The translations under genes were made by a program, and so were the position numbers. A DNA stretch of 64,000 nucleotides. Source: Podarcis gaigeae. Its lineage: Eukaryota. How positions within the stretch are numbered: the first letter of the stretch is position 1; each line of letters begins with the position of its first letter. Location of the stretch: NCBI GenBank assembly GCA_964106915.2, contig OZ066916.1; one strand, written 5' to 3'. Shown here piece after piece: positions 2,059 through 44,918 of this stretch. A model generated the notes under the pieces. The model searched no databases. It was not told the origin of the DNA and saw only the letters and a list, made by a program, of their open reading frames with translations.

Positions 2059-5000
2059 TGCAGCAGTCAGTACTCAGACACAAATGGGAAGGAACCAATC
2101 TAGTTTTCAGAGACTGTGCTGAGGAGGGCTGCACTGAGGAAGAATGGTAGGAGGCACCCTCTCCCCCTGATCCTGAATCTTCCCAGGAGCAGGGGAACAG
2201 AATAGATTTGGAACAGTGGTTTGCAGAGGGGCATACTGTAGTTTAGAAGGCAGAAGCTGGGAAATACTGGATGGGGATCAGCTAGGAGAAGAAACAGTGG
2301 AAGAGAGAGGATTAACAGATTCACAGTCATCAGACAGCATTCCTCCAGCGCCCTCCCCAAGCTTGAGAAGAGCTCAGAAAGTCTTAGAACAGAAAGTGCA
2401 GAGGGTACAAACTCAGTTTACAAGATGTTGGAGTGACGTGGATTAATAGGGATGGAGGGGGTGTGAGCCTTAATTGGGAGCACCGCCATTCTAGGTAATA
2501 ATAATAATAATTTTTGATTTATACCTCGCCCTCCCCAGCCAATAAGTTGAATGAACACAACTTAAAAACAAAATTAAAATACATTAAAATATTGAAACAT
2601 TAAAATATTAAAATGTATTTTAATAATACATAATAGTAGGTAGACTGGTTCTTTGACTTTCACTGTGATTATTAAAGAATCTTAACTGGTAAGATGTTCC
2701 TTGTGTTTGATCTCTTCTTATTCACTGCCACAGGGGAGGAAGCCAATTCCCTGAAGTCTGATACTAGTTGTGTGAGCCAGAACTGACAGCGAGACTGGTA
2801 GGAGTGACTGGAACTCAGGGCCCCCAAACCAGGATATCAGGAAACAGCACCCCCAGAGCTGGACTCAGAGGAGCCAAGGGTCCCCCTGGCCAAACACCTC
2901 CTGTACCTATGCTCCTGATCACAGTAGATGGGAACAGATGGAGAACTGACTGGTTCAAGTCCTGAGTCACACCATTTTTAAGGCTCTCTACTTTTCATCC
3001 AGGGGCAGTGGAGCCTAAGAGTCAATGACGGCAAGTATGGACTTGGTTGGAATGAAGACTGTTTAAAGTGGACCAGGACTGGACAAACCTTCTAAAAAGG
3101 ACTCCTTCAGATAGAAGATGGAAATGGGACATGTCTTAATCTAGCTTATAGAAAATTCTGCAGCACCATGGACAATATTCTGACCTGCCAGCCTTGTGCT
3201 TTTGTCTTAATTTGTGCTCTGGGTCATGAATTGGACGCTGCCTGCCTCATCATCAGCTTCAGATTGTGGACTATGACATCTACTTTCCATGTGCTTCCTC
3301 AGCAACTGGGGAGGGAATCTCATTTATTTATAAGCTGAAAGTGCATGTGGTGGAACAGGAGTGCATATGCCACAGTGGTGCATTTGTGCAGTGGTCCTCA
3401 GACCCCAATGGAAGAACAAATCAATCTCTCCCTCTCATGGAGAGGGACATCTCTAATGGTGACCTTTGAAGGCCAGCCCAGAGAGGAAGAGAGGACAGAA
3501 CATACCATCCAGGCAATTTGACATCCTGAACTTATCAATGGGAAATAACCTGAAGCAATAATGGATGGTAATATCTTCAGAGATGTCCAAAGTGGTGCAT
3601 TTTGTAACCGTTGGATACCATCTTGATTCAAAACTGCATTCAGTGGTATCCAACCATTGACCAAAACCTGCTCCTTGCACTTGGGAACTGTCACACCAAA
3701 TTGGATGATGTCACACCAAACTGAGCGACAATATCTTCAGAGTCATCCAAATCAATACAGTTCAGAACAGTTTGGTCTCCAATCTGGAATCCAAACATTG
3801 TCGGATGGTATTCAAACAGAGATCAGAACCTGCTCCATGATCCTGGGAACCATCTTGCCATATTGGGTCATTGACTCTGGGTCCACCAACTCTTGGCCTT
3901 CTGCCTTGCGCCTCATCAGTATCAGTAGACACTGGCCACCACCACTCAGAATGACAGAAATTCCAAGTAATTGTAGTATGGTAAGACTAAGATGGTGAGC
4001 CATTTGGATGGTATCCGTGACCCTGGAGGCAGCCCTAAATGGAGTCTACTGATATTTTTATTATTACAATTTACTCGCCCTTCTCCCAAAGGTCCCAGGG
4101 CAGGTTACAACAATTTAAAAGTACAATACTGAAACACTTTAAAAAATTACAACTACAAAAGATGCAATAATGAAAAATAGGGTGGGTCCTTAAAAAATAC
4201 ACCTCAGGTGTAAGAAGCCTGAAGATTTACATAGGCTTATATCAGACAGCAAAATGTGAATCAGCGCCCTGCTGTGTGATAAACAAGAGGAAAAGTTAAT
4301 TTCTTGATTACTCTCCACGACAAAACCACTTTTGCAAATCCAGCCTCAGATATTTCAGCTGTGAGGCCCAAAGCAAATTGCATGGAGTCAAAAAGTACTG
4401 GAGCTCATAATTTACATTATGTTCTTCTAATTTCAAAAAGTTCTGTACTTCTGTAATTAAATTTTGCTAAGCCATAAACCAACCTTCACATCTCATGTCC
4501 CATTATGAATCTCATCCTTAGACAATCCATCTACGCTATTATCAGTCCCAGATGGTGGAACAAGAGCCAAGCAAAAGCTCTTGGAATTCATTTCAGCTGT
4601 TTACAAAACTGGCTAATTTTCAGGATATTAAAATGTATTGCAGAGTGCTATAAATCCTGCACCCTCTCCCCATATATATTGTGCTCCATGACACATCAGG
4701 AGAAAATACATTTAAAATTCCTAGGAAATTGCCTTGCCTCTTAACAGCTTAAAATTGATTTGATGCATTGTATGAGTTGATGAATTGATTTGATGCATTG
4801 TATGTAAGTTAATAATCTGCATACATCAATCACAGTTTGTGGGCTGGGGTGGCCCATGACTGAAGTAGGATATTTCAGCTTTCAGGAGAGACGGAGGGAA
4901 TATGTGAGTGGGTAAGCTCACCCATTCCTGTCATATTAGTAGGAACCATGAAGGCATCAGCTCAGTGCCTCTCCTCCTCTCTGCACAGCCTGTCATTTCT

Positions 5001-34640: not shown

Positions 34641-37242
34641 AATAAAATAAAATGGGGGGCATGGTATTTTTTTGGAATCAAAAAGTGTATTGTATGTGAA
34701 AGTCTTGGCAAAGTTTCAGAAAACCCCTCACCATCCTGTTGTCCCCCTGTTGAGTCAGAATCATAGAATTGTAGAGTTGGAAGGGACCACAAGGGTTGTT
34801 GTTTCAGATTATAATTCTCTTTACCCATAAATTGCACATCTGTGCTGGTTGGGGCTGATGCGAGCTGTGGTCCCAACCACCTGGAATATACCAGGTTGGT
34901 GAAAGGTGGTCTAGGATATTAGATTTGGCAGAGTTTCTCTCTTTTTACACCACTTATCTTTTTATCCTTCATTTGCTTCCTTTAATTAAGTGTTGGATTT
35001 TCATGCTTTTTGCATTTTGACGCAGATGTGGCTGGTATGCACTTATTTTTCTTTCTCATCTGTATTTTGCATAATAAAAAATGGCAAATGTGTGTTATAT
35101 AAAAGGTAGGACAGATGTTTTCAGTGACATGAACAACAGTTCCTGTTATCAAGTTAATGTATTTCAAATGCTTCTTGGAATGCAATACACTCTGTTCTGC
35201 TGAACATCAGTTCTCATGGCTGAACGTCAGAAATACCACCACCTGTTCTTGTCCATTTTCAAAGGGTATGTATACACTACAAATCTAAAACAGGATGCCT
35301 TTTTTTCACCCAAGGAATCCTGGGAACCATTGTCCAATGAGAGGGTTAAGAAGCATGAGCTGTAGAGGTGAGGAACCTGTGGCCCTCCAGATGTTATTGG
35401 GACTACAGCTCCCATAATTCCCTGCTGGCTAGGGTGATGGGAGTCAGATTCCAAAACATCTGGAGGGCCACAGGTTTCCCACTCCTCACTAAAGGAATTG
35501 AAATTCCCAGGTTTCTTGGAGGAAGCCATGATAGTTCAATTAGGTTTCACTCTGTTTATCTTTGTTCAGTCTGAAAAACCTGTTGATGATGCCACAGTGC
35601 TTTAAAAATAGAGAGAAGGCTTCTGAAGATAACACCATACCAGAGTTGGGGCCTGCATTGCAAAGCCATTAGGACCGTACTTATAAAGGTCATAATGAAT
35701 AGCAGTCCAAGACAGCCACAAAGTGTTGTGTCAGGATGGATTATGTTAAGCAGTAGCTGGCAGTGTTGCCATCATTGTTTATAAAGGGCACTGTCTGTTT
35801 CTGTTTATGTCCCCATCTTTCACATTTGTTCCAATGCTAAAGCCCCTCTTTAATATTCACATTAGAGAAAGCAGCAGAAGAAAACTCTGAGCAGACACAG
35901 CCAGTATAAAAACTGACAGCGCAGAACATCGTGCTTTTAGTTGTTGATCTGCTGGCTTGTTTTTTGTCCATTGGAATTTGTACTTCAAAGCAACCTATGG
36001 GGCTTTTTTTGGTCTTTGCAAACACACACACATGTGGATTTAACAGTGCATGATAAGCAGAGCTTGGCTGCAAAACAGCACATGCTCGATAGCAGTGCCA
36101 TATAAACCAGGCAGACCCCCCACTGTGCATCAAAACAAAAAATGGTTTCTCAAGATGTCATCTGCTAAAAATGATAAAATGCACTTAGCAGTTCGTGTGC
36201 TGACATTTAGTTCCTTTCTCTTTTCGTTAAAAATACTGGAAGGGGGAGGGAGTGGAGTCTTGAATAACGTTCTTTCTTTCTTTCTTTCTTTCTTTCTTTT
36301 TCAAGGGACTCATCTTTCTGGTAAAGAAGTATTAAATAAAGATTAGATAGCTTTATAATTAAAAGAGAATTTTCAATGAATCTTTTTATTAATGCCTTCT
36401 CAGAGAGATGAAAGTAAAAATAAGTAAATTGTTCTGTTTATTCAGTTCTAAGGCAGGGGTGGGGAACTTGGGAAGATTTTGCCAAACTACAACTCCCATT
36501 TATCACTGATCATTGACTATAGTGGCTGGGGCTGATGGGAGCTGGAGCCTGGCAACACTGGAGGAATCCTACAACTCCCTTATTACACCAGCTTCACTGG
36601 CTGCTGGTCGGTTTTCAGGTATTATTGAAAGTGCTGGTTGTGATCTATAAAGCCCTATTAGGCTCAGGTCTAAGCTACCTGAAATTCCCTTATATGAACC
36701 TGCCCAGGTTCTAAGATCTTTGGTTCTGCCACCCTCTCGGGTAGCAACACAAGAGAGCCTTTCCTTTCTCTGGGTGTTCTCCTATTTTTCATTGTGTGCA
36801 GTGAAATTATACATGGTATTTGCACCTTTCATCAGGCTTCCATTTAGTTATTTGCATTGCACTTTTATTACGTAAGGGATCATGTTCGCTATCCAATTTC
36901 TTTTGTAAAATAGATAACTGGTTTCTTTTGTCAAGCAGATAACCTGGCACATTCCCCGGCACGCTCCTTTCGTATAACTGAAGAATGGGCCAAGTATAGG
37001 TGATCTGCTGCCATAGGGGCTAATCGTCAGAGAGATGTCGTTTGGAAGCAGTAAAAACAGCATAATGTACACAGTTTCATTATGTAACAAATTAATAAAC
37101 AACCCCAACAAAGCGTGTTCTCATTAAAAGAGAGCACGTGTTGCGGATGGGGCCAAGCAAAACCCTATTTAGTTGCCAGGCTATAGATGGCTATGGGCCT
37201 GAAGAAGATTGGGGATTTGTTACTGGGGTAAATTTGATGTTG

Positions 37243-37306
37243 CCAATTTAGGGGTGGGATCAATGCCTATATATAAGCAAGGTCCACAGCTTTCTCTTTC
37301 TCTTTT
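37243..37306 (+). promoter_or_regulatory. Pol II core promoter of the element
   Basis: CCAAT 37243-37247, GGGGTGGG 37251-37258, TATATATAA 37268-37276, pyrimidine (TCT-like) initiator ~30 nt downstream around 37300. Confidence 0.65.
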
Positions 37307-38587
37307 GCTGTGGACACCGGATCTGCACCGGAGCGATTTCAGCAAATGTTTGGGTTGTATATTTTCCCCTTTTCTCCCTTTCTTCTTCTTTCATTATTTT
37401 ATTGCTGTATAATTTTCTCTTCTCTTATTTTATTTCCTCCCCTTTTGTTACTCTCTTCAGACTTCGGCAGGGGGGGGGGGCTCTCGGCCCCGGGTGGCCT
37501 GCGGCCTGTTCCAGGCCGTGCCAGGGGACCAGAGCTGGGGGTGCGATCTTCCTAGCCTTCCCCAGCCTACTTCCGAGTGCCACCCCCTCGGGGTGCCAGC
37601 CGCGGGGATCGCCCGGCGGCATTATTTGGCCCGGCCGGGCCTCTGTTTTATTCTTCGCCCTTCCTAGGCCTTTTAGAGTGCCGGAGAGGCCCCTTGATTG
37701 TCCCGTGGGCTGGGAACGGGGCTTCGGCCCCCGTAAATTGTGCGCGCAAAGAGCGCGCGGAGACCGGCCGTTTTGTTTTTTTTCTGTTGTGCTTGTTTCG
37801 CGCCGCGCGCGGCTTTCTCCCCCGCCGCTTGGGCCTGCGGGCGTCGGGGTCGCGCCGCGGCCTCCTACCTGCCCGGGATTCCGGTGGCACCGGGGAGGCC
37901 CGCACCGGCCCCCCGGGTGTTGTCGGGGGGGGGTGCGCGCGCTCCAGGGGCCTGCTGATGCCGCGATCGGCCGCGGCCTGGTTTTCGGCCTGATTTGGGC
38001 CTTCCCTCCCCCTGTAAGTGCCAATCCGACCATTGCAGCCCCGCGGTAGGCTGCTCGGCGGTGGGGGCGACTGACCTGGCCTTGGGGCGGGCTCCGGTAG
38101 GTCGGCTACTGCCGCTGGTGGTGGGGGGCTGCTGGCAGGCCCCAAAGGGAGCCTTGATTAAGCGAGGCGGCTGGGGGCCCTCCATTTGCTGCCTCATTCG
38201 GCGGGAGCGCCATTTTGTTTCTTTTAGACCACGTGGTGGCCTCTAGTGTTCAGGCCTTGTAACAGCAGGGCCTGGTGGCTGCATTGTCCTAGGCCAGAGC
38301 ATTATTTAGCCTTATATCGCAGCCCCTAGTGGCTGTTTATATGCTTGCAGGTATTTAATTCCTCTCTTGCACACGGCCAGTCAGCTATTGCTAGAGAGGT
38401 ACTGCTGTTGAGTATAAGGTTGCAGGTTTGACCCCCCCCCCTATTCGGACAGCCTTTTACTCCTAGTGGCTGGGGGGAGAAGCAAGTGGTTGGTTTCTTG
38501 CCTACTGGTGTTTTAATTTATCATTTGTCTTGACTTTTATTTAACAATTTAATTTCTCTACCTAGCATTGTTGCGGATTTAGCGACC

Positions 38588-38589
38588 TA

Positions 38590-38631
<42 letters not shown>

Positions 38632-38644
38632 TAATTAATTAATT
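38588..38644. repeat. (TAA)n microsatellite inside the putative leader intron of the element
   Basis: Direct observation; lies between donor-like CAG|GTATTT (38350/1) and acceptor TTCTATTCTCTTTTCACCAG (ending 38662). Confidence 0.9.
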
Positions 38645-38670
38645 CTATTCTCTTTTCACCAGTAGTAGGA

Positions 38671-39138
38671 ATGGCTCCTAAGAAGGCAGCAGGGAGGCCT
38701 GATCCAGCCCGCTCTTCGAAGCGGCCTATAAAAGGCCCGTCCCAGGCCTTGCGCTCTCCGGAGCCTAGTCAGTCTTTGAAACGCATCCAGTCCATGGTTT
38801 CAAGTTTGTCTGGCGACCCGGCGGCACTGACAAGGGTGGAGGCAGAGATGGATGGATTGCTGCATCGCTGCTCAACCCCGTCAACCTCCTCTGCGATCCT
38901 GGCTCCCCCTGGAGGCGCAGCATTTCCAGCGACTTCATCTAGCAAAGAGGAGGGAGAACCATTTTCTGCCAGTGGTTCTTTGCCTAATGCACAGGCCCTG
39001 TCTTCGGTCTCACCGGCGGCGCAGGTGGCCATGCCAAGGGGTCGTGGTCGTACCAGGGTTGGTGCCAGGAGGAGGGCGTCGACTCGGGGTCATGTAGTGC
39101 GGGGTTCTCCTTTGCAGTCTACGGTTGTGGGGAATTAG
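38671..39138 (+). CDS. Gag-like ORF1, N-terminal basic/low-complexity part
   Basis: ATG in good Kozak context (GGAATGG), MAPKKAAGRP...; first ORF of the element; stops at 39138 out of frame with the conserved Gag C-terminal part. Confidence 0.6.
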   Translation: MAPKKAAGRPDPARSSKRPIKGPSQALRSPEPSQSLKRIQSMVSSLSGDPAALTRVEAEMDGLLHRCSTPSTSSAILAPPGGAAFPATSSSKEEGEPFSASGSLPNAQALSSVSPAAQVAMPRGRGRTRVGARRRASTRGHVVRGSPLQSTVVGN

Positions 39139-39722
39139 CCCCCCCCCCGCTTGAGGGTCAGGAGCCGTTGGACAAGGGCTTCCCTGCCCCCAAGAAGCGG
39201 GCGTTCGTAGCAAAAGCAGATAGGACTTTTGAACGTTGGATGGATAGTTTCCAGGTTTTTGCTGGTGTGGTTTCCGCAGCTTATCCCAGGAGATCTTTGC
39301 ACTTATGGGTGTATCTGTCTATTGTTCGTTCTGCCTTTACGATGGCCGGAGAGACCGCCGCTTTGTCTTACGACCAGAATTTTAGGCGTAGAGCGGCCAA
39401 GATCCCCACGGCCCGATGGGATCGGAAGGACTTGGACGTCTGGACCACTTACGTGGCCCCCCGCATTGATAAGAAGGTCCCTGATACGCAGAAATTTAAG
39501 GCTGCCCCATCAAGGTTAGGCCGCAAGCTGTACTGCTGGGATTTTAATAAGGGCGCTTGTCCACGACAATCCTGTAAGTACACGCACGCGTGCGAAAAGT
39601 GCTCAGGGAACCACTCTGCGTCCACGTGTTTGGGGGGCCGCCGTCCCTTTCGGAAAGGCGGGGGCTCCCAACAGCCCCCGAAAGCCGCTTCCCAGGTCCC
39701 TGCCGCTGGAGCGGGAAAGTAG
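39118..39722 (+). CDS. Gag-like ORF1, conserved C-terminal part with zinc knuckles
   Basis: RTFERWMDSFQVFAGV...YP...Y...SYDQNFRRRAA..P..RWD motif of YR-retroelement Gag; CWDFNKGACPRQSCKYTH (CCCH) followed by CEKCSGNHSASTC (CCHC). Frame is open from 38988; start placed at a putative acceptor. Confidence 0.8.
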
Positions 39723-39739
39723 CATCCTATCCTCTTTAG

Positions 39740-41328
39740 CTTACACCCCGGTAAAGTTGCAACCGCTGCTATCATTGTTGGAGTTATATCCTGATGCCGA
39801 ATCGGCATCGTATTTGCGTGCGGGTTTTTCCTCAGGTTTCAGAATTCCGGTGGTTGCCACTCCGGTTGCCAAGGACCCAGCTAACCAAAAATCGATTAGG
39901 GATATGCCAGAGGTGGCGCGTAAGAAAATTGGAAAGGAACTAGCTTTACGTCGCATGGCCAGTCCTTTTGCTGCCCCCCCTTTTCCCAAATTGCCCATTT
40001 CACCTTTGGGTATGGTTCCCAAAAAGGCTCCGGGGGAATTCCGCCTAATACATAACCTCTCTCATCCTAGAGGCACGTCAGTAAATGACGTGATTCCCCC
40101 GGAGCTTTGTTCGGTGAAATATGCCTCTCTCGATCACGCGATTAAAATGATTCGGAAGTTTGGGCGGGGCGTCTTGCTGGCAAAATGCGACATCGAATCA
40201 GCGTTCAGACTGCTTCCAATTCATCCCGATGATTTTTGGTTGCTGGGATTTCAGTTTGAGGGGGGATTTTACTTTGATAAGGCTATGCCCATGGGTTGCT
40301 CGGTGGCCTGTGCAGCTTTTGAGTGTTTCAGTTCATTTTTGGAGTGGGCTTTGCGTGAGAAGACCGGGCTGGGCGGAGTCACACATTATCTCGATGATTT
40401 TTTGGTGGCCTCGGCGAGCAATACAGGGGACTGTGTGGTGTTATTGCAGGCATTTGCTTCCCTAGCGGAAGATCTGGGTGTCCCTTTAGCTGCGGAGAAG
40501 ACCGAGGGTCCTTCTACGCAGCTAACCTATTTGGGTATCTTATTGGATACCATGGCCCAAACCTCCAGCTTGCCGCCTGAGAAGATAACCAATCTTAAAA
40601 AGGTTATTGAGGAACTCGTTCCCTTACAGAAAGTCACCTTGCGGCAGCTTCAGTCGTTGCTGGGCCACTTGAATTTCGCTTGTAGGGTGGTCGCTCCTGG
40701 GCGATCATTTTGCTCTCGTTTGGCCAGACTTACATCTGGCTTGAAGGCCCCGCATCACAGGGTGCGCCTTCCTAGTCAGGTACGGGCTGACCTGGACATT
40801 TGGTTGGAATTCCTTGAGGAGTTCAACGGTATGTCATTGTGGCAGCACACTTTGAACCTCCACAATGACTTCCAGGTGCATTCTGATGCTGCTGGGTCCT
40901 TGGGTTTCGGTTTGTACTGGGACGGCAGGTGGTGCGCTGAGCGTTGGCCCACGGCTTGGCGGGAGCAGGCCATAACTCGGGATCTAACCTTTCTCGAGTT
41001 TTTTCCCATTGTAGTGGCAGTGCACTTGTGGGTCGAGCACTTCAGGGACCATCGAGTTTGTTTCTGGACTGATAACCAGGCGGTGGTGGACGTACTGGCC
41101 AAGCAGTCTTCATGATCCCCTAGGGTATCTGCCCTTTTACGGGCCTTCGTTTTGCATTGTCTGCGTTTTAATATTGTATTTTCTGCTCGTTTTGTTCCGG
41201 GAGTTTCTAACGAGATTGCTGATGCTCTGTCCCGTTTTCAGATGGAGCGATTCAGGTCCCTGGTGCCAGTGGCTCGAGACCGTCCGGAAATTTTCCCGGA
41301 TCCTCTCTGGAACCTTGGCAGGACTTAG
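39740..41328 (+). pseudogene. Reverse transcriptase-RNase H (pol) with one in-frame TGA at 41113-41115
   Basis: RT motifs VPKK..GEFRLIHNLS, KCDIESAFR, MPMG, HYLDDF; RNase H SDAAG, LEFFP, WTDNQ and, past the TGA in the same frame, VPGVSNEIADALSR...LWNLGRT* ending 41328. Frame open from 39520; first ATG only at 39904. Confidence 0.93.
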
Positions 41329-42209
41329 TTTTACAGGGAGTAGCTGCATCCGTTGCCCCCTCTACACTGAGGTCCTATAGAAAGGCCTGGGCGGATTTCT
41401 TATTATTTAATGGGCAGTCTGTAGGGGACGTGTCCACCCCCCATTCCACCTCGCATGTGCTCCGGTATTTGGCACATCTGTTTCAGATGCGCCGGGCGGC
41501 TAGGACCCTGCGTCTGCACTCAGCAGCAATTTCCTTTTTTAATAGGGCATATTTTAACAAGGACCCGTGTGGGAAGTTTGTGGTGCGCAGGGCCCTGGAG
41601 GGATGGGGGCGACTCACTCCTTCCAGGCCTATTCCTAGGCGGCCCATTACATTTGAATTGCTAGCGCAGATGCGGACTAAATTGCGGAGCGTCTGTTGGT
41701 CAAAATTTGAGGCTCGGCTATTTTCTGCAGCCTTTTCTTTAGCCTTCTTTGGGGCCCTGAGGGTCGGAGAGGTGGTCCTGGAGCCTAAGCAGGACGGAGG
41801 TTCAAGGGGGTTGCTGTTGCAGGATGTAAGCATGTCCTCAATGGACCTGCAGGTTAATGTCAGAAATTCAAAAACGGACCAGCTAGGCAGGGGCGCTGTC
41901 ATTACGCTCCCTGCGACTGGGGATGGTGGCCCTTGCCCGGTAAAAGACCTTACGAAGTATTTGGCCCTGCGCCCCGCCGGGGAGGGGCCCCTGTTCATTC
42001 ATGAAAATGGCCGCCCGCTGGTGAGACATCAGTTTACAAGTGTGTTGCGCAAAGCTATCGCGGCATGCGGCCTTCCGGCCCAGGAGTTTGCTCCTCACTC
42101 CTTTAGGATAGGAGCTGCTACAACTGCTGCCCACTGGGGTTTGTCGGTTAAACGGATAAAAGACTTGGGACGGTGGAGATCAGATGCATTCAAAGTCTAT
42201 GTGCGCTAG
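41242..42209 (+). CDS. Tyrosine recombinase (phage-integrase family)
   Basis: N-terminal SVAPSTLRSYRKAWADF; catalytic FFGALRVGE (R), SKTDQ (K), HSFRIGAAT (HxxR), LGRWRSDAFKVY (W,Y). Frame open from 41223 and overlaps the pol 3' end; first ATG only at 41487. Confidence 0.93.
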
Positions 42210-42246
42210 TAATGTGGTCTGTACTCACATTTGTTTTTAACCCTAG

Positions 42247-42821
42247 GTCGGGCTGCTATCCGTATCTGGATAGTAGGGCACAGTATTGTGCATTGGGCTG
42301 CGGACAGAGCTCGTCAATCCGGACTGGGTGATGGCCTAGGCTTCCCGCAGCACGTTCAGGTGTCCTGGATCTCCAGAAGGGGGATGCTGTGGAGGGAATT
42401 ATTACCTCTCTTGCAAGGGCGTGTCCTTCGTTTTGGCCCTCCTTCGGCGATTGTGGTGCAACTTGGGGAGAATGATATGGTTTCCTCTTCCTGCTATGAG
42501 CTGCGTGCGGCCATTTTACAGGACCTGAGGGAACTGGCGGCACTGGTGCCGACCGCTAGGTTAATTTGGTCACAGCTGCTTCAACGACGCACTTGGAGGG
42601 GTAGCCCTTGCCCAGCTGCCACCGAACGAGTGAGGAAGCGGATTAACTCCGCGGCGAGTAAGCTGGTGGTCGATTTGGGCGGGTGCGTGATCCCTCACCC
42701 TCTTATTTCATTCCGGGCGATTGAATTTTATAGGGATGACGGGGTTCATCTCTCTTCAGTTGGGAATGATGTGTGGTTGGATGCTTTGGTGTCCAAGTTG
42801 AGGGTGTGGTTTGATTTGTGA
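42247..42821 (+). CDS. SGNH/GDSL-family hydrolase (esterase)
   Basis: Block I WIVGHS, block II RRG, block III QLGEND, block V DGVHLS; no ATG before the catalytic Ser (first ATG 42384); preceded by CTCAC...TTTGTTTTTAACCCTAG acceptor. Confidence 0.88.
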
Positions 42822-43162
42822 GTGGTTGGCGGCGAGCGTAAGGGCTCGAATGGCGGTTAGGCATTGGTTAAAATTGGTTGGTGGAGGGGTATGGATTGGC
42901 TGTGCCTGCCCCTCCTATGCTGCTGCTGACGGGTATTCCCTTAAAGGAATTCTGAAGCTTACCATCCCCTTCGTCCAAACCCTGACGGCAGGGTGCGGGC
43001 CGTGTAAGCTTCAAGGAACATGCGGTGGTAGCTGAGGGTCTGTTTCGCAGCTCCAGCTGACCCTGATCTTGTTCCTCCGGGACTGACTAGGGAGTCAGTG
43101 CTGTTCCCCAAAGGCGGGGGGAAACAGCTAGTCATAACCAATGCCTAAGCAACCACTCTCAA
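42816..43162 (+). other. Predicted multibranched cis-acting RNA/ssDNA structure in the element 3' UTR
   Basis: Perfect 14-bp pairing 42857-42870/43135-43148; 12/13 pairing 42816-42828/43150-43162; 10-bp pairing 42953-42962/43004-43013; at least six further nested stems. Confidence 0.7.
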
Positions 43163-43172
43163 TTTGTATGAT

Positions 43173-43178
43173 AATAAA
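43173..43178 (+). terminator. Polyadenylation signal of the element
   Basis: AATAAA immediately after the structured region, followed by a GT-rich tract at 43227-43253. Confidence 0.65.
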
Positions 43179-44918
43179 GTTGTGGCCAAAATTATGCCAA
43201 AAACCTTAAACAAAAATTATGCGTAATGTGTGAGTTATTGGGGTTGGGGTTTTGGGGGACCTCAGCATGCAACCATCTTTTGCTGAGCCAAGAACCACTC
43301 GTTAATTCATCACAAAAAACCAGAGCATATAAAATGGGGTGGGGGGAGGAAGTCATGATGAGGTGGACTAGGAGGACCCTTTATTCACAATTCATAAATG
43401 AATTTTTCTGACGCCCCCAATCCACAATCATCCCAACATGCCCCATTTGCCCACTTCCCATTGCTGAAAAATCAGAGGCAGAATATGCATGACCCATGGT
43501 GGAACTTTCAGCATGCATACTGGGGAAACTCCAGTGGCAGTACTGGTGCAATTCCCTCTCTGCCAATAGATCAGCACCTCTAGGGTTCCCTAAGGCTCCT
43601 CAAAAAGCCTGAAGTTACTAAAATGTGTGAATGTGCATTTTTAGGGGAACATTTCTTTCACCCAGCACATTTTCACAGGAACAAGATTTAAATGCAATTT
43701 ATGTCCTTTGCTTGCCCTGTTTATGTTCTAAATCCTCCACAGCATATTTTTTGGTAGTATTAGTGTTGCTAGTGTTCTGTTGTAATGAATTAATGAAAAA
43801 ACTAACTAACTAGGAAATGTTAACCTGTGCGTGAGTGAGTCCTGCAAATGCCTTCATGTTATTTGAGTGAGATAGTTATACCACCAATTTGATTGGGTGC
43901 AGCCCAAGTATGGTTCACATTCATGTATGTACATTGCATGGATGTATGAAGCTGTGAGCAGAAGTATGAAAAAGTCTGTGCGACTCCCTTAAACCCAGAG
44001 AAGCCCTGAATTCTAATTCTGAGCAGCTCTAGAGTTTTCATTATAGCGGCAGAGCCAATATTAAAGGAGAGGTCTTGTTTCATTGATTTTACTGTGAGAA
44101 GCCAGTTGGAGTTCTGATAGGCCAGGAAGATTAGTAAAACCCTGATTAAATGCGTCAGTGGTCCATAATGGAGTAAAAGGGTATGCCTTTATCAGTTCCA
44201 AGCTGTTTCACTTCAAATGTGGTGTTAAAATGAAAGAAAATTTGGCGTGCACAAACTGCCCAAATTTACAAGGGGAGTCGCTAGCCAAGGAGCAGAGTCT
44301 CCAAGAATATCCCAAGCTCTTGTTCCTTCCCTCCTGACCTGCTGCCTGGATCCACTCATATTTTACAAAGTTTTGAGTTCTTGTATTCCATCCACAGGTC
44401 CTCATTCTTTCGTTAAGTGGCACGGCTTCCAGCAGCTTCCCGTCAGTATTTAAACTGACAACTTCATAAAGCCCCCCACCATGCAGAAAGGATAACCACA
44501 GGACCTCCATCCACACAGAGAGATAGCAGTCCTGGTTCCTTCATCTGCTTCAGAACATGAATTACTTTATCATAAAACTTGAGCCCCATATAGCACAAGT
44601 CTTAGAAAGTAATTACTGGGGCTGGATTGAGAACTCCACTCTTCAAAACAGAGGCAACTCGCTGGAATTTATTAATTGATAATGTAATTTGTTAGTTTCT
44701 AGGGCTGTGTTTGGCTCTGTTCTGCTTTGACCTGGAGAACACCCAACCAGGAACCAGCCACTGAATAAATTCAAGGACGGGGCTAATATTTATTATGGGT
44801 GTCTATTCCAACCAAGCTGCAGAGAGCAGGAGAGTTTGATCTTGCTGGGTGCTGCCTTTCCAGCAAATTCCCTGCAGGGAACACAATGGCAAAGCAGACC
44901 GCTGCAGCCAGGAGTGGG

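Follow-up and report, generated by a model that had tools for sequence, protein, structure and literature searches.

Structure of the element and sampling

The window analysed here is a stretch of 64,000 nucleotides (nt) from Podarcis gaigeae (contig OZ066916.1 of assembly GCA_964106915.2). From approximately 37110 to 43272 its plus strand, on which all features discussed below lie, carries a tyrosine-recombinase (YR) retrotransposon of the Ngaro type with an SGNH hydrolase gene. The expression of the overlapping, ATG-less genes of YR retrotransposons has so far been left to assumption. A preliminary description of this copy proposed that five phase-matched acceptors, serving two parts of gag, pol (thus likewise spliced), YR and SGNH, are joined to a leader exon of three amino acids (aa) or to a donor at 39573. 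We examined this proposal by comparison with related copies.

The gag gene (38671..39722) has its own ATG at 38671 and a stop codon at 39720-39722, and is interrupted by an internal deletion in the window copy. The pol frame (39649..41328) encodes reverse transcriptase and RNase H (RT/RH; RVT_1, E=8.6e-14), has a premature stop at 41113-41115 in the window copy and ends 28 codons past the motif ADALSRFQ. The tyrosine recombinase exon (41242..42209) is recognised from Phage_int_SAM_4 and Phage_integrase matches just under the Pfam cut-offs and from Gag-YR gene models. In the SGNH hydrolase exon (42247..42821) the S, G, N and H blocks are intact (GHS, RRGM, LGEND and DGVH in translation), while its Lipase_GDSL_2 match (E=2e-4) lies below the Pfam cut-off and no match was found in the PDB. 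As previously reported, the first ATGs of pol, YR and SGNH are at 39904, 41487 and 42384. The order gag, RT/RNase H and YR, the latter overlapping in the -1 frame, is the Ngaro layout. No Pfam match to a methyltransferase domain was obtained after RNase H in the shortened pol frame, where no search was aimed at methyltransferases.

The genes are flanked by split direct repeats. A1 (37109..37324), with a TATA-like box read from the sequence at about 37268-37277, recurs at the 3' ends of sister copies (A...B-A-B), and the B repeat (42851..43272) contains AATAAA at 43173-43178. An A-B-A-B or longer layout is present within the retrieved 9.5 kb in 21 of 39 sisters; the window copy, with A...B, lacks the second A-B. 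Organism A carries the insertion; in organism B, DNA contigs join 37099 directly to 43270 and so represent the empty site. A short CAAC core is shared at this join and a target duplication is absent, as in Ngaro elements. The window copy belongs to a lizard-type family of Ngaro-type retrotransposons and is defective, part of it being deleted. Its nearest named proteins come from lacertid lizards (87% identity to a Podarcis muralis model), in one sister family over 130 of the 150 SGNH matches scored were near-identical, and no relative was found among viral contigs.

The comparison set comprised 79 related loci, namely 39 sisters, 78-97% identical to the window copy over the element body, and 40 more distant loci. 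The window copy and its sisters form a near alignment of 40 copies in 21 families. Acceptors were scored in 41 representatives, 21 of them standing for the near families and 20 drawn from the 40 distant loci, and the SGNH acceptor was scorable in 37 of the 41. Acceptor-like sites with at least 12 pyrimidines in 19 positions are common (40 in 4.5 kb, about one per 110 nt), so that a match of phase alone is weak and conservation must decide.

The gag gene and its conserved donor

The split of gag into "Gag N" and "Gag C" is caused by an internal deletion of about 470 bp in the window copy, the junction of which (39133..39142, the loss near 39136-39142) was located by comparison with the sisters. 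No listed contig spans 39136-39142, and the deletion is known from this assembly only. A single uninterrupted gag starting with ATG is present in 22 of the 39 sisters, and database Gags also align as one frame. The Gag N-terminus had no usable match in Atlas. Judged from these intact copies, the deletion created both the "Gag C" open reading frame (ORF) and its phase match; the AG of this ORF (39118) occurs in 25 of 40 copies and 13 of 21 families, and ends a Gln codon (phase 0) in the undeleted frame.

The missing part carries a conserved donor, CAG|GT, which a scan for donor-like columns placed at about gag codon 222, directly after a run rich in Arg and Lys. It is found in 38 of 39 sisters, in phase 1 in all 22 with an intact gag and in 30 of the 38 overall; the other eight carry upstream indels. 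A YWG motif downstream served to anchor the donor in 58 of 80 loci and is missing from the other 22. GGT followed by a purine (GTR) occupies the site in 58/58 anchored loci, compared with 33% GGT among gag Gly codons. Donors are expected to compensate a missing A at -2 by a G at +5, and eight of the nine loci without A at -2 indeed have G at +5, these eight being closely related. We interpret this conserved phase-1 site as the likely shared donor for YR and SGNH. It was invisible in the preliminary description because it lies in the part that the window copy has lost. With the donor lost and a stop in pol, this copy would be unable to run the programme proposed below. The alternative donor at 39573 is far less stable, with GT in 14 of 40 copies and GTAAGT in two. 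The sister copy L044 has a deletion of its own across the donor, and its pol contains about 1.9 kb of inserted sequence.

Expression of the SGNH esterase

The predicted SGNH 3' splice site (42210..42246) consists of a branch point CTCAC, a pyrimidine tract and TAG. Its AG is present in 39 of 40 near copies and 20 of 21 families, and in all 37 scorable representatives exactly 20 nt separate it from the first Trp codon of SGNH downstream. The pyrimidine fraction is 0.77, compared with 0.53 at 3256 control YAGs, and the branch motif is found in 31 of 37 representatives, compared with 19% of the controls. The phase is also kept in the three distant metagenome elements inspected (3/3).

By contrast with the AG, the surroundings vary. 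The spacer between the YR stop and SGNH ranges from 32 to 62 nt, and with respect to YR each of the three frames is used by SGNH (17/16/4), while in-frame ATGs occur in 17 of 37 representatives at scattered positions, none of them conserved. The common frame of YR and SGNH seen in the window copy thus extends to only 17 of 37 representatives, and read-through from YR, already considered unlikely, is disfavoured by the three frames. Because spacer and frame vary and the ATGs are scattered, SGNH expression is explained by neither read-through nor a fixed slip nor a conserved ATG, and among the sequences compared only the AG holds its phase ahead of this gene.

Gene models point to the same junction. 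Among 26 longer SGNH database proteins, 17 (from Podarcis and Zootoca) consist of the N-terminal part of Gag (GagN), a Gly and SGNH, joined at the predicted split codon, and in another five a host gene is joined at the SGNH acceptor. On these grounds SGNH is very probably expressed by splicing of the mid-gag donor to the SGNH acceptor. The lacertid host-gene models (P0017-P0021, with source names ZNF638-like or SRRM2) end in the SGNH exon via the same acceptor, which is likely a case of exon capture.

The gag-pol junction

The pol frame is +1 relative to gag. Within the gag frame, the window copy has CCC TTT CGG at 39645..39653, the predicted +1 frameshift site, and in the rows scored a motif (C/T)CC TTT CGN is found 24-27 codons upstream of the gag stop. 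TTT is present in 30/30 representatives and CG in 27/30, the three others resembling CpG decay; across loci, TTT CG occurs in 57 of 63. For comparison, TTT makes up 57% of gag Phe codons; AGR, which accounts for about 47% of gag Arg codons, never follows the TTT. The corresponding peptide PFR is found in 21 of 24 database Gags. The arrangement resembles the influenza PA-X site: UUU_CGN is conserved in the zero frame and the +1 frame is open. In the stop-codon test (10 of 30 rows unscored), however, the +1 frame is mostly open upstream of the gag-pol overlap too, so that its openness does not mark out the overlap. G GGA AAG, which precedes the gag stop, was dismissed as a -1 slip site given the +1 frame of pol.

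We consider it quite likely that Gag-Pol is made by +1 ribosomal frameshifting at CCC TTT CG. An unlikely alternative is that YR and SGNH are spliced while pol is reached otherwise, by internal initiation, re-initiation or another slip site, with TTT CG kept as a protein or RNA signal. In favour of this alternative, a few copies (L051 and L056) read gag and pol in a common frame owing to a shorter G-run. The fixed choice of TTT and CGN where synonyms exist speaks against this alternative, and no conserved ATG precedes the N-terminal motif of pol, where Met occurs in four of 20 scored sequences. L051 and L056 have one G fewer in the G-run after the shift site, and L059, a sister, has the usual length. 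A difference within one family (L056 and L059) points to slippage or assembly error, and we read these in-frame copies as G-run length variants.

Splicing of pol is not supported. The acceptor proposed for it lies in coding sequence (39725..39739), and its AG is not conserved, occurring in 25 of 40 copies and 16 of 21 families; the rest have TGG, a Leu codon change.

Expression of the recombinase

The predicted YR 3' splice site (41215..41241; CTGAT, pyrimidine tract and CAG) lies within the RNase H coding sequence. Its AG is invariant, being present in 40/40 near copies, 21/21 families and 41/41 representatives. Only seven of 290 near-invariant pol columns are invariant at the codon level in 18 intact representatives, and three of these are GAT, CGT and CAG immediately before the YR AG. 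Four distant metagenome elements from one assembly, whose YR is 38-41% identical, retain both the AG and its phase here; their contigs are too short to cover the donor or the shift site. Among ten longer YR proteins, five join the basic run of Gag to the predicted YR acceptor, one starts from a later donor, and a Xenopus model has a Gag-like front with an unconfirmed junction; the Gag-YR junction was also found in one gecko model. The ATG and acceptor-like site at 41487 were rejected as the start of YR since 11 of 40 copies lack this ATG.

According to PMC13003380, frameshifting was called "probable" for YR in a review (Poulter and Butler 2015). Applied to this element, YR would follow from pol by a -1 frameshift and only SGNH would be spliced. 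Such a reading would agree with the position of YR in the -1 frame relative to pol, whose end it overlaps by 84-102 nt in 40 of the 41 representatives (the overlap is longer in one broken copy), and with the T TTT run that is common before the YR AG. We nevertheless regard it as improbable. A canonical -1 heptamer (X XXY YYZ) was found in the pol-YR overlap of none of the 41 representatives, the GagN-YR models join at the AG, and two successive slips would be needed to reach YR. Splicing of the mid-gag donor to the YR acceptor, for which the invariant AG and the Gag-YR models argue, is highly probable.

The leader and the five-acceptor proposal

A long GC-rich leader (37325..38670) precedes gag and is poor in sense ATGs. 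In 21 families, in which the distance from A1 to the gag ATG is 0.85-1.5 kb, 19 ATGs were counted and 254 expected from dinucleotide shuffles; the control trinucleotide CAT was seen 182 times, with 252 expected. This depletion suggests that the leader is probably scanned by ribosomes rather than spliced out as an intron, and it argues against an exon starting at a leader ATG. The ATG and donor suggested for such an exon (38341..38358, a short upstream ORF) are found in nine of 40 copies (ATG) and seven of 40 (GT at 38350), and the window copy alone has both. The scan of donor-like columns revealed no conserved donor upstream of the gag ATG. A YAG with a U-rich tract is common just before this ATG, so a minor leader intron may end there; the particular AG proposed as acceptor (38663), 8 nt ahead of the ATG, occurs in 30 of 40 copies and 12 of 21 families.

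Although all five AG sites and both donors exist in the window copy, each falling after codon position 1 of its frame, and U-rich YAGs before the gag ATG are common, the five-acceptor model is largely refuted by conservation and very improbable, given its poorly conserved donors and pol AG, a "Gag C" that derives from a deletion, and an ATG-poor leader. The preliminary observation is therefore partly confirmed and its interpretation partly supported: conserved acceptors remain for YR and SGNH, and Gag-YR and Gag-SGNH fusions from a shared phase-1 donor are likely, whereas the spliced pol, the other acceptors and the donors first proposed are not upheld.

Two further features of the leader were observed. 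A block at 38180-38250 in a CpG-rich region is conserved within the otherwise divergent leader (CCATTTT, GGCGGGAGCGCCATTTT, CCTCTAGTGG); we presume that it resembles YY1, E2F and CTCF sites, and it is possibly an internal or antisense promoter. TGGTYGTA at 37350-37360, just 3' of the A repeat, is conserved in most families and placed like a primer-binding or boundary signal.

Proposed expression programme

The conserved features suggest that one promoter would give rise to four proteins in the family of the element. Gag would be translated from unspliced RNA, and Gag-Pol would be produced from the 9-nt shift site near the end of gag. The mid-gag donor would be spliced to two alternative acceptors, giving GagN-recombinase (GagN-YR) and GagN-esterase (GagN-SGNH). 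The shared first exon of about 222 codons, with its Arg/Lys-rich end, would place a common basic tag on a recombinase of about 545 aa and an esterase of about 413 aa, perhaps for particle packaging or nuclear import, which is speculative. The exact junctions are thereby defined for each of the likely proteins. The features of a U2-type GT-AG intron (GT donor, branch point, pyrimidine tract, AG and matching phase) are present, with a weaker YR branch motif in one group. On sequence comparison, the likely explanation is that an element of a known kind uses a single mid-gag donor with two acceptors, plus a +1 frameshift.

Several observations weigh against this programme. The copies are kin, so that conservation counts do not represent independent events. 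The most frequent form of the donor, CAG|GTACTT, is weak on the intron side. The YR acceptor falls in the conserved protein motif ADALSRFQ, the Arg codon before its AG varies, and CTGAT is absent there in the group L070-L089. Three of the four distant metagenome elements have the weaker AAG (Gln to Lys) at the YR site, and in two very distant elements no pyrimidine tract accompanies the YR AG. The database proteins are automated NCBI gene models, such as LOC144327882 and LOC114596625, whose RNA support is not visible, and 4 of the 26 SGNH models make other joins while 3 of the 10 YR models join from RT/RH. Intron-less genomic copies were not found among the best 101 of 2636 and the best 101 of 3592 candidates, which is a weak test. 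In six runs that behave as DNA contigs, and therefore carry no information on splicing, none of the 15 joints listed (out of 97) falls at a predicted junction. The E-site codon of the shift motif is mostly CCC, and in the available part of PMC3498833 UCC-to-CCC-type E-site changes lower PA-X shifting by 40-70%.

More generally, it seems rather probable that young multicopy Ngaro families of vertebrates tag YR and esterase with GagN by retrovirus-like splicing, that a PA-X-type UUU_CG +1 shift sets their ratio of Gag to Gag-Pol, and that host genes capture the esterase exon. If this is true, splicing replaces the slip assumed for YR in the review, the unexplained esterase gains a handle, a cellular retroelement joins the short list of users of PA-X-type frameshifting, and a retrovirus-like programme is new for the DIRS order.

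Two observations stand apart from the programme. Many matches of a divergent Ngaro group are clustered on a 29.5-Mb contig (C32 of G000). Outside the element, at 35368-35482, lies a 28-nt inverted repeat with arms 93% complementary and 59 nt apart, which is MITE-like.

Comparison with known systems

In the main text of openly accessible papers we found no report of splicing or of a UUU_CG shift in Ngaro or DIRS elements. A native splicing programme or a UUU_CG site of these elements was not found by word search in PMC3783388, PMC3266345, PMC6681497, PMC7192593, PMC9341512 and PMC8547959, nor was either found in the available parts of PMC9210276, PMC5009743 and PMC4495291. The Xenopus elements DIRS-53_XT and DIRS-54_XT, as far as described in the accessible text of PMC9210276, share the layout A1-ORFs-B1-A2-B2 and the order gag, RT/RH, YR and SGNH. 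The terms "splic", "intron" and "frameshift" do not appear in that text, whereas the present element is proposed to use one common donor with two acceptors and, in addition, a +1 site.

The shift site resembles those of influenza A PA-X (UCC_UUU_CGU; PMC3498833, in part) and of amalgavirus (UUU_CGN; PMC5052127, in part) in that UUU is followed by CGN in the zero frame and the downstream frame is +1. For PA-X, an efficiency of about 1% and a site mapped by mass spectrometry are given in the same part of PMC3498833. The element differs in its E-site, mostly CCC, and in that the predicted product is a retrotransposon Gag-Pol.

A functional analogue of GagN-SGNH may be seen in the ORF1p of ZfL2-1-type elements, which according to excerpts of PMC3905857 combines a coiled coil with an SGNH esterase and binds lipids. 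In both cases the esterase is attached to an N-terminal part of the first-ORF protein, but a single ORF encodes it there, while in the present element the fusion would arise by splicing.

Retroviruses use one promoter and an acceptor inside the pol coding sequence, as predicted here, and reach 3' genes such as env via splicing. According to the accessible portion of PMC5408684, the ORF3s of LTR elements, some of which are GDSL/SGNH esterases, are typically expressed from spliced messages. By contrast, the donor of the present element lies about 222 codons into gag and would thus create GagN fusions, and the integrating enzyme itself would be carried on a spliced message.

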